Of a stretch of DNA of 64,000 nt, positions 44,780-46,301 are shown piece after piece. The notes below the pieces were generated by a model, which was not told the DNA's origin, did not search any database, and was given only the letters and a program-made list of their open reading frames with translations. Both the position numbers and the translations under genes were made by a program. Within the stretch, counting starts at the first letter, position 1. Every line of letters starts with the position of its first letter. Origin of the DNA: an uncultured delta proteobacterium. Lineage in GTDB: Bacteria; Desulfobacterota; Binatia; UBA9968. Where the stretch lies: assembly GCA_963737905.1 (NCBI GenBank), contig CAVTUQ010000002.1:320001-384000 (forward strand), read 5' to 3'.

Positions 44780-44803
44780 TGACAGCGTCCCCCGGACGCG
44801 TCA
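44780..44803 (-). promoter_or_regulatory. candidate bacterial SECIS hairpin
   Basis: UGAC-GCGUCC-GGG-GGACGC-U-GUCA starting 10 nt after the in-frame UGA; G-rich apical loop; no U-tail. Confidence 0.55.
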
Positions 44804-44804
44804 C

Positions 44805-46301
44805 TCAGGTACCTCAGAAAGTTTGGTAGCGCTCTTGTCCTTCCGGTGCAGGTTCGGCAAAGGCGGCAAACTCCGGTTGATCGTCGAACGGGCGCGATAG
44901 AATCTTGAGCAAGGTCGCAAAGGGCACGTAATCTTCGCGTTCCACTGCAGCGCTCAAGGCTTCCTCGACGCGATGGTTGCGCGGGATGAACGTGGGATTG
45001 GCGCGCCGCATCGCCTGCGCCCGCGCCAAAGGCGCTACCGCCTCGCGCGCAAGCCGCGCCCGCCAGTGTCCACTCCAGAGATCGTAAGCCGACGGATCGG
45101 CGAACAGCGCGCGAATCGGTTCCTCCTGGCCTAAGGCCGCATCGGCGAGGTGACGGAAAGCCAACGTGTAGTCAACACTCTTGCCCTCCATCGCGGTAAG
45201 CAACCCCGTGGCAAGGTTGAGATCGGCCTCGTCCTCACTGACCAGTCCGAGCTTCGCGCGCATGCCTTCTAGCCAGTGGCGTTCGTATTGTTCCGGAAAA
45301 GCATGGACCACCTGAGTGGCGCGTGCGATGGCGCGAGTTTCATCGGCATCGATCAAGGGTAAAAGCGTCTCCGCCAGCCGCGCCAGATTCCACTGCGCGA
45401 TCTTGGGTTGATTGCCGTAAGCATAGCGGCCGTGGGTATCGATGGAGCTGAAGACCGTTGCCGGATCGTAGTGATCCATGAAGGCGCACGGGCCGTAGTC
45501 GATCGTCTCGCCCGAGATCGCCATATTGTCGGTGTTCATCACGCCATGGATGAAGCCCACGTGCATCCAGCTGGCAATGAGCGCCGCTTGTTTGTCGCAC
45601 ACGCGCTCGAGCAATCCCAGGTAGGGATTCCCATGGTCCTTCAGCTCCCGGTAGTGGCGATCGATAACGTAATCGGCCAGGCGACGCACCTTGGTCTGCT
45701 CGCCGCGGGCCGCAAAAAATTGAAAGGTACCCACGCGAACATGGCTGGCGGCAACGCGCGTCAAAACCGCGCCTGGCAGTGCGCTCTCGCGAAAAACGGG
45801 CTCACCCGTAAGAACCGCGGCAAGCGCCCGGGTCGTCGGAATACCAAGCGCGTGCATCGCTTCGCCGATCAAGTATTCACGCAACACGGGCCCGAGGGCC
45901 GCCCGGCCGTCGCCGGCGCGCGAAAAGGGAGTGGGACCCGACCCTTTGAGCTGAATATCGCGACGATGGCCGTTGCGGTCGATCACTTCTCCCAAAAGCA
46001 GGGCCCGCCCGTCGCCAAGTTGGGGCACGAAGCCGCCGAACTGGTGGCCGGCGTACGCTTGGGCCAGCGGCGCCGCTCCTTCGGGTGTCTCGTTGCCGGC
46101 AAAGATCCACGCGCCTTCCTCGGAATCGAGAGCGCTGGCATCCAGCCCCAATTCTTTCGCCAATTCACGGTTAAGCTTAACCAACCTAGGCCGCGCCGCT
46201 TGAGCCGCCTTCCAGGGTCGGTAGAAGCCCTCAAGTTCGCGCGCATAGGTATTGTCGAAGGCGAAGCGCGCGATAGCAGGGCTGTTAAGGGCGTGCGTCA
46301 T
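44805..46301 (-). CDS. selO: protein adenylyltransferase SelO/YdiU; C-terminus YQTF-TGA-GT* (candidate Sec)
   Basis: [47 protein letters not shown]. Confidence 0.93.

Follow-up and report, generated by a model that had tools for sequence, protein, structure and literature searches.

SelO, or YdiU, is an AMPylase/UMPylase that is conserved and responds to stress, and a C-terminal cysteine (Cys) reportedly gates its activity. In Escherichia coli YdiU a regulatory disulfide is reported between Cys272 and Cys476 (PMC8097203; bioRxiv 10.1101/692707; both cited here second-hand). The human protein has a Cys664-x-x-Sec667 pair, with selenocysteine (Sec) as the third residue from the end. Its selenium content was shown by 75Se labelling, and experiments showed that the C-terminal Sec has a redox role (PMC3994087). 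A bacterial counterpart has been predicted by deep-Sep (mSystems 2025, PMC12013277), a Sec-containing 'selenoprotein O-like' protein (COG0397) in Desulfosediminicola ganghwensis IMCC35004 that a 2026 review tabulates as WP_136798779.1 (PMC13188914). Here we consider the SelO gene in a stretch of 64,000 nucleotides (the window; positions 320,001 to 384,000 of contig CAVTUQ010000002.1, assembly GCA_963737905.1) from an uncultured delta proteobacterium of the Binatia, a soil organism. The gene is predicted to encode a SelO enzyme of the AMPylase/UMPylase type in which the regulatory C-terminal Cys is replaced by Sec (...RYQTF-Sec-Gly-Thr).

This gene very probably encodes a genuine selenoprotein, with Sec inserted at TF-U-GT and a hairpin lying past the true stop codon as the selenocysteine insertion sequence (SECIS). 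Sec insertion is supported because the TGA falls on an invariant Cys column, the Gly-Thr-stop that follows it is kept, the hairpin accompanies TGA only, and selA, selB, and a Sec-type selD are present in the genome together with Sec-type fdhA genes. The original prediction, made from the letters of the window, had proposed exactly this Sec form, and the same lines of evidence, along with the alternation of TGA and TGC among relatives, now speak for it. It had also stated, correctly, that eukaryotic SelO has a C-terminal Sec. Its suggestion that such a protein would be new to bacteria is outdated. Since deep-Sep reported one in 2025, a bacterial Sec-containing SelO is a known kind of protein, as a computational prediction, and the 'TGA-containing homologs' of that report may already include Binatia-type sequences. 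What appears from the sequences to be new here is the Binatia lineage, a SECIS wholly beyond the stop codon, and repeated switching between Sec and Cys with an extra Cys at position -5 in most Cys forms. A literature search for Binatia together with selenocysteine found nothing.

The C-Terminal TGA of the Binatia SelO Gene

With its first TGA read as Sec, the gene runs on the minus strand from an ATG at 46301 to a true stop, TGA, at 44805-44807, and its product ends ...ERYQTFUGT directly before this second TGA. The table-11 open reading frame (ORF) is 495 amino acids long (44814..46301, minus). The 3' end of the gene on the minus strand is ...CGC TAC CAA ACT TTC TGA GGT ACC TGA GTGACGCGTCCGGGGGACGCTGTCA, so that the QTF-stop-GT-stop reading originally put forward is borne out codon by codon (TGA at 44814-44816 and 44805-44807).

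The protein matches the YdiU family model NF000658 with 579.5 bits (cut-off 431) and the SelO domain PF02696 with 394.5 bits (cut-off 22.8), the latter over residues 14-467, which is the whole domain. It scores below the cut-offs of the equivalog models NF045949 (441 versus 850) and NF040880 (413 versus 900). Therefore, it is a member of the family and an equivalog of neither. Residues 13-496 align to the solved YdiU/SelO chains 6iii, 9jym, 6k20, and 6eac with E-values of about 1e-104, and the proposed Sec496 stands at the column where the solved E. coli chains have their C-terminal Cys. This third-from-end column holds Cys or Sec in all 85 aligned sequences, and every one of the 71 Cys-form sequences (12 Binatia, 59 outgroup) has Cys there. 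The only other Cys column kept in all 85 is that of Cys272, in the motif YGPCAFMD.

Relatives of the gene use both codons at this column. SelO was found in 13 of 41 related genomes, and in four of these, the window's included, it has a single in-frame TGA. A scan of named genomes gave 80 loci, 20 of them Binatia-like (L038-L057) and 60 from other groups (Pseudomonadota, Bryobacter, Nitrospinota). The Sec/Cys codon is TGA in 11 and TGC in nine of the Binatia-like loci. Among the other 60 it is TGC or TGT in 59, the last locus being cut at a contig end, and all 59 evaluable outgroup genes end in TFCGT or TYCGT, TFCGT being the ending that had been claimed for many bacterial YdiU proteins. When three duplicates are removed, homology retrieval yields 28 unique Binatia-type 3' ends, of which 14 have TGA and 14 have TGC. 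All 14 TGA forms read TGA GGN ACN TGA, with changes at third codon positions only. Such conservation of GGN ACN and a stop would be unexpected for untranslated DNA. Thus, both the alternation of TGA with TGC and the conserved Gly-Thr-stop that the original prediction had proposed to look for in relatives were found, as was the hairpin described below.

The scans also give an idea of where this form occurs. In the named-genome scan the closest relatives, with 79-90% identity, come from metagenome-assembled genomes (MAGs), most of which carry the label Candidatus Binatia or that of an 'uncultured delta proteobacterium'. Five loci (L039, L045, L047, L049, and L056) have a SelO 81-89% identical to the window's under the discordant record labels Verrucomicrobiia, Pseudomonadota, Syntrophobacteraceae, Deltaproteobacteria, and Candidatus Acidiferrales. 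Such labels point to MAG taxonomy that is loose or out of date, and not to true spread across phyla. In a sample of 401 genomes from the window's large phylum, 23 genomes have SelO; in G429 and G251 the match lies at a contig end, short of the codon in question. A TGA inside the alignment was found in the window's genome only, and no further Sec-type SelO lineage was found in this sample. Ten distant SelO 3' ends gave short alignments. Nine end in ...SMLSCSS with a Cys codon and the tenth, L139, is a divergent or shorter form that lacks the motif. The nine tails (L130-L138, ...PGCSMLSCSS-stop) are E. coli-like, with an additional Cys five residues before the terminal one, and this C-x4-C spacing equals that of the Binatia Cys forms.

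The Hairpin Beyond the Stop Codon

The minus-strand transcript of the window can fold downstream of the gene as UGAC-GCGUCC-GGG-GGACGC-(U)-GUCA, with the triloop starting 20 nt after the UGA. This agrees with the 10-bp hairpin and G-only loop originally described. What did not hold up across relatives is the outer part, where the UGAC/GUCA pairs vary, and position 44783 of this outer stem differs in contigs of a close strain from two other studies (X1 and X2). Conservation is confined to the inner five pairs and the loop (44785-44799). In the window's copy a closing C-G pair leaves a GGG triloop, and a difference at 44790 in X1 and X2 turns its loop CGGGG into CGGGC, the majority form.

Among the homology-retrieved relatives this core is confined to TGA forms. 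An invariant GCGTC-N5-GRCGC block (GCGTCCG.G.G.CGC) comes after the TGA in every one of the 14 TGA forms, and the core pattern has no match among the 14 TGC forms. The median minimum free energy of the downstream segment is -8.95 kcal/mol in TGA forms versus -4.6 in TGC forms. Counted from the UGA, the loop (CGGGN or GGG) begins at 19-20 nt across the TGA forms. This geometry is consistent with a SECIS, since it falls inside the 16-37 nt given for the distance between UGA and apical loop in bacteria (PMC10778597). It also matches the hairpins of the genome's own FdhA genes (see below). An intrinsic terminator was considered and ruled out. There is no T-run, as originally noted, and no terminator-like site is predicted in 44500-44900.

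A metagenome scan that left the hairpin unspecified (pattern TAY CNN ACN TTY TGA GGN ACN TRR) extends these results. It returned 80 loci from 118 matched stretches, of which 21 are chance matches in non-SelO frames and 59 are SelO 3' ends. One of the latter, L156, ends in mid-hairpin at a contig end. The core hairpin is present in 56 of the 58 that can be evaluated, and the two exceptions differ in kind. L158 (313-354, minus), a close relative with TGA, has another hairpin of 9 bp, AGCGAGCCG-GGU-CGGUUUGCU, whose G-first GGU loop lies at the same distance from the UGA. In other words, structure and position are kept while the sequence has changed. In L184 (4391-4444, plus), no Binatia-type hairpin was found downstream of YRTF-TGA-GGG-ACG-TGA. 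Its SelO is only about 55% identical to the nearest sequences of the set (Rhizobium-type), and the locus could be a second Sec lineage with another SECIS or a truncated gene. The true stop varies in the metagenome set between TGA, TAA, and TAG, as expected of a real terminator codon. The set is uninformative on conservation of GGN ACN because it was selected on GGN ACN and a stop.

Structure alignments were made for 14 sequences (A1) and for 58 sequences, 56 of them distinct (A3). Each of the 56 distinct sequences in A3 can form all five core pairs. One of these pairs changes from U-A to U-G twice and the other four never vary. A sixth pair is C-G in 20 sequences, U-A in four, and unpaired in 32. 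The argument for this hairpin as the putative SECIS is built on its invariance where the surrounding non-coding DNA varies, its occurrence with TGA exclusively, the position that it takes up, and the replacement in L158. It is independent of compensatory change.

Probable Selenocysteine Insertion and the Alternatives

The genome encodes much of what Sec insertion would need. Genes for selA (606.9 bits), selB (409.8 bits), and selD (381.4 bits), all above cut-off, are adjacent on the minus strand of another contig (C29:71024-75669). SelD itself carries an in-frame TGA (...VKAAG-U-AAKLGP), at what we take to be the catalytic Cys/Sec site of that family. Two FdhA-type genes (C29:35176-36072 and C36:54276-55361, both minus), one of them about 35 kb from the sel cluster, read ENQAR[IV]-U-HSSSVP, presumably the usual FdhA Sec context. 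In each of them the in-frame TGA is followed by a SECIS-like hairpin with a G-first loop 18-19 nt after the UGA.

The component that is missing is selC, so that the expected set of Sec genes was recovered in part. The window's assembly is a MAG that is 87% complete with 6.7% contamination. The 44 tRNAs that ARAGORN finds in it serve all 20 amino acids, but a tRNA for Sec is not among them. The best match to RF01852 (46.6 bits) proved to be a tRNA-Leu(UAA) and was rejected as tRNA-Sec. Neither blastn with the tRNA-Sec of the same genus nor a relaxed ARAGORN scan of the region syntenic with the same-genus locus found selC in the assembly. Flank synteny from the tRNA-Sec loci of 12 relatives did not find it there either, and the locus is not syntenic among those relatives. 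Across the 41 genomes, 38 have selA and 32 have a tRNA-Sec of at least 64 bits (36 and 30 of 39 without two genomes flagged as unpublished). The eight selA-bearing genomes that lack tRNA-Sec (the window's G000, G001, G003, G007, G010, G014, G021, and G024) are all multi-contig MAGs, and every assembly of eight or fewer contigs has it. The missing selC is probably an assembly gap, given the 87% completeness and the confinement of such absences to multi-contig MAGs.

What if the first TGA is simply the stop? The protein would then end ...RYQTF, with its regulatory Cys-Gly-Thr tail gone, and would not be redox-regulated, and the hairpin would serve another purpose, such as mRNA 3'-end stability or protein binding. 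Several observations lean this way or weigh against Sec insertion. The complete 495-residue table-11 ORF already holds the whole Pfam domain, and selC is absent from the assembly. The 71-nt hairpin region is no more stable than shuffled sequence (z = 0.16; 113 of 200 shuffles have a fold as stable or more so), so the hairpin by itself is at chance level in this G+C-rich DNA. Covariation in the stem is not significant either, being reached by 161 of 500 shuffles for A1 and 36 of 500 for A3. RNA contigs (X15) inside the coding sequence stop at 44851, short of the TGA and the hairpin. DNA carry-over into that library is possible, and the RNA runs are silent on read-through because their coverage stops where it does. 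Finally, no selenium labelling or mass spectrometry was found in the literature for any bacterial SelO. However, a real stop at the first TGA does not account for an in-frame GGN ACN and stop kept, with third-position changes only, in all 14 homology-retrieved TGA forms. Nor does it account for a hairpin that lies at SECIS distance, with no terminator-like site, and is present in 14 of 14 TGA forms versus 0 of 14 TGC forms, or for a genome that has selA, selB, selD, and other Sec genes. Termination at the first TGA is therefore improbable.

Another idea is that the UGA is read through mostly without Sec, by near-cognate Trp or Cys tRNAs or by Cys or Ser carried on tRNA(Sec) under low selenium, giving a largely selenium-free protein. 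The supply of selenium in soil varies, Cys forms are evidently viable in sister lineages that retain the Sec machinery, and the Sec reading is drawn here from sequence. Nevertheless, what marks out Sec-specific decoding is a conserved hairpin of the SelB type at the proper spacing, and this genome has kept SelD and two FdhA genes in their Sec-type forms. If Cys were wanted, the one-base change to TGC would be simpler, and it did occur in other lineages. We give such read-through very low credence. There is next to no chance that the TGA came from TGC through faulty sequencing or assembly, or through a pseudogenising mutation in the very recent past. A single base does separate the two codons and the window comes from a MAG of the quality given above. 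However, homology retrieval gave 13 further unique loci with the same TGA, and the metagenomes gave 58. The TGA is also kept in the contigs of two other studies (X1 record 1 and X2 record 5), which cover 44805-44816 without a listed difference and differ from the window elsewhere. Error was rejected on these grounds.

If Sec is inserted, as we consider very probable, a ribosome that meets UGA496 would do so with the SelB/GTP/Sec-tRNA(Sec) complex held nearby by a minimal hairpin, with a stem of 5-6 bp and a G-rich loop. This hairpin would lie wholly inside the 3' untranslated region (UTR), starting 6-7 nt past the true stop and placing its apical loop 19-20 nt from the UGA. Sec would be inserted, two further codons would be read, and translation would end at the next stop. 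Sec496 would then do what the C-terminal redox Cys, Cys476 in E. coli, does in bacterial YdiU, and the probable means is a selenylsulfide between it and the invariant Cys272 near the DYG motif. E. coli Cys272 aligns with Phe284 here (counted by hand) and the invariant Cys of YGPCAFMD lies 12 residues earlier, so we infer that the partner is this protein's own Cys272.

Features of the SelO locus in the window (Sec and SECIS assignments are predictions)
Feature	Position	Strand	Remark
SelO/YdiU protein adenylyltransferase gene	44805..46301	minus	498 codons plus stop with the first TGA as Sec
Cys272 in YGPCAFMD	45486..45488	minus	directly after the DYG motif; candidate partner of Sec496; Cys in 85/85 aligned sequences
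Arg491 (CGC), position -5	44829..44831	minus	Cys in most Cys forms of the Binatia clade
In-frame TGA, proposed Sec496	44814-44816	minus	third residue from the C-terminus; on the invariant Cys column
GGT ACC, Gly497-Thr498	44808..44813	minus	GGT 44811-44813, ACC 44808-44810; translated only if the TGA is decoded
Conserved core of the putative SECIS	44785..44799	minus	stem GCGUC / GACGC, loop CGGGG (CGGGC in most relatives)
Extended hairpin of the window's copy	44780..44803	minus	from folding; outer UGAC/GUCA pairs, bulged U at 44784

The next ORF downstream (43858-44616, minus, 252 amino acids) starts about 190 nt past the SelO stop. Judged by eye, it is a candidate RNase H-like protein with an extra N-terminal domain.

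History of the Sec and Cys Forms and Comparison with Known Systems

A tree of 26 Binatia-type proteins was built with the last nine residues removed. Binatia-type SelO forms one clade (SH-aLRT support 97), within which Sec and Cys forms are interleaved. The maximum likelihood tree needs seven changes between Sec and Cys, of which the starred branches force only one. Approximately unbiased (AU) tests reject both a single clade of Cys forms (p 0.003) and a single clade of Sec forms (p 0.004). Sec and Cys forms have flanking intergenic sequence in common (alignment A2), and in five of the 14 TGC forms at least 10 of the 15 core positions are kept in the register of the Sec forms. The corresponding figures for outgroups, in any register, are a mean of 7.2 and a maximum of 10. 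A remnant SECIS after a change from Sec to Cys has been described before (PMC1794560).

An economical history for these sequences would have Sec gained once from Cys at the base of the Binatia-type SelO clade, together with a newly born SECIS. Reversion to Cys would have come later and more than once, with decayed hairpins left behind and, as a rule, a second Cys added at -5. We infer this direction because one hairpin sequence is common to all Sec forms and all outgroups are Cys forms. It is possible that the 3' end was exchanged by recombination instead of reverting. A contig from a soil run (X9), with a loose end before 44835, leaves the window's sequence for a Cys-form 3' end, ...TTC TGC GGC ACC TGA. 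One sample therefore contains relatives of both forms, Sec and Cys.

The two forms differ at one more position. Cys occupies residue 491, at -5 from the Sec/Cys column, in 10 of the 12 Cys forms of the Binatia, in none of 14 Sec forms (13 Arg, one His), and in one of 59 outgroups. The tail of the Binatia Cys forms that have it is G-C-Y-x-T-F-C-G-T, and each of its two differences from the Sec forms is a single base (CGC/TGC and TGA/TGC). Perhaps a single gain with a 15-nt stop-external SECIS was followed by repeated reversions, each tending to recruit Cys at -5 (R-x4-U to C-x4-C). This is a tentative proposal, more doubtful than not. An independent-pairs test of the association with -5 Cys is underpowered, with one pair on the starred branches. 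If the proposal is true, one Sec would do the work of a dithiol pair in gating AMPylation, and nature would have run an experiment, in the SelO clade of the Binatia, on the value of Sec in a regulatory redox switch. GCGUC-CGGGC-GACGC would also be an unusually small natural stop-external SECIS and a possible portable tag for C-terminal Sec.

How does the Binatia protein compare with those described? The Desulfosediminicola protein is the closest in kind. The two cases are alike in having an in-frame TGA at the Cys of homologues, with a bacterial SECIS predicted a short way downstream. In both, other bacteria that use Sec have homologues with the TGA, and both are computational predictions. They are unlike in source, a named isolate there and uncultured Binatia-type MAGs from soil and freshwater here. 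The comparison is one of descriptions, since the deep-Sep text and table, as far as they are available, are silent on the position of Sec, as is the review, and on that of the SECIS relative to the stop. The Binatia sequences would make a second bacterial lineage of Sec-containing SelO. With about 70 unique sequences it is sampled far more deeply than the single published computational report.

Eukaryotic SELENOO belongs to the same family and also has Sec as the third-last residue (U-S-S in the human protein, U-G-T here). However, the human protein has a CxxU pair, whereas the final 20 or so residues of the Binatia Sec forms contain no Cys. Unlike the hairpin proposed here, the SECIS of eukaryotes is of the kink-turn type, lies a long way downstream within the 3' UTR, and is read by SBP2/EFSec. 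The outgroups between Binatia and eukaryotes are all Cys forms, so the bacterial Sec is most likely a gain independent of the eukaryotic one. Proteins of the Cys type, such as E. coli YdiU and Pseudomonas syringae SelO, are homologous over their full length and have their C-terminal Cys at the same column, although the tail differs (VS-C-SS in E. coli versus TF-U-GT in the window). Sec-using lineages beside Cys-using sisters would offer a tractable system in which to ask what selenium is worth in regulatory as opposed to catalytic redox chemistry. A practical consequence is that standard gene finders systematically call the Binatia SelO gene three residues short.

For the arrangement of UGA, stop, and SECIS, no natural bacterial stop-external SECIS was found in the literature searched, and cases may be in print. 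The SelO hairpin is presumably unlike the fdhF element in sequence. The nearest parallel is an engineered one. Expression of mammalian thioredoxin reductase (TrxR) in E. coli indicates that an fdhF-derived SECIS placed after the stop works for a near-C-terminal Sec (PMC10778597, PMC11431864). Both arrangements have the UGA a few codons before the stop and a minimal SECIS wholly in the 3' UTR at a distance compatible with SelB. The TrxR arrangement is man-made, whereas that of Binatia SelO occurs in nature, where about 70 unique sequences conserve it, and it would document a natural SECIS entirely downstream of the stop codon.

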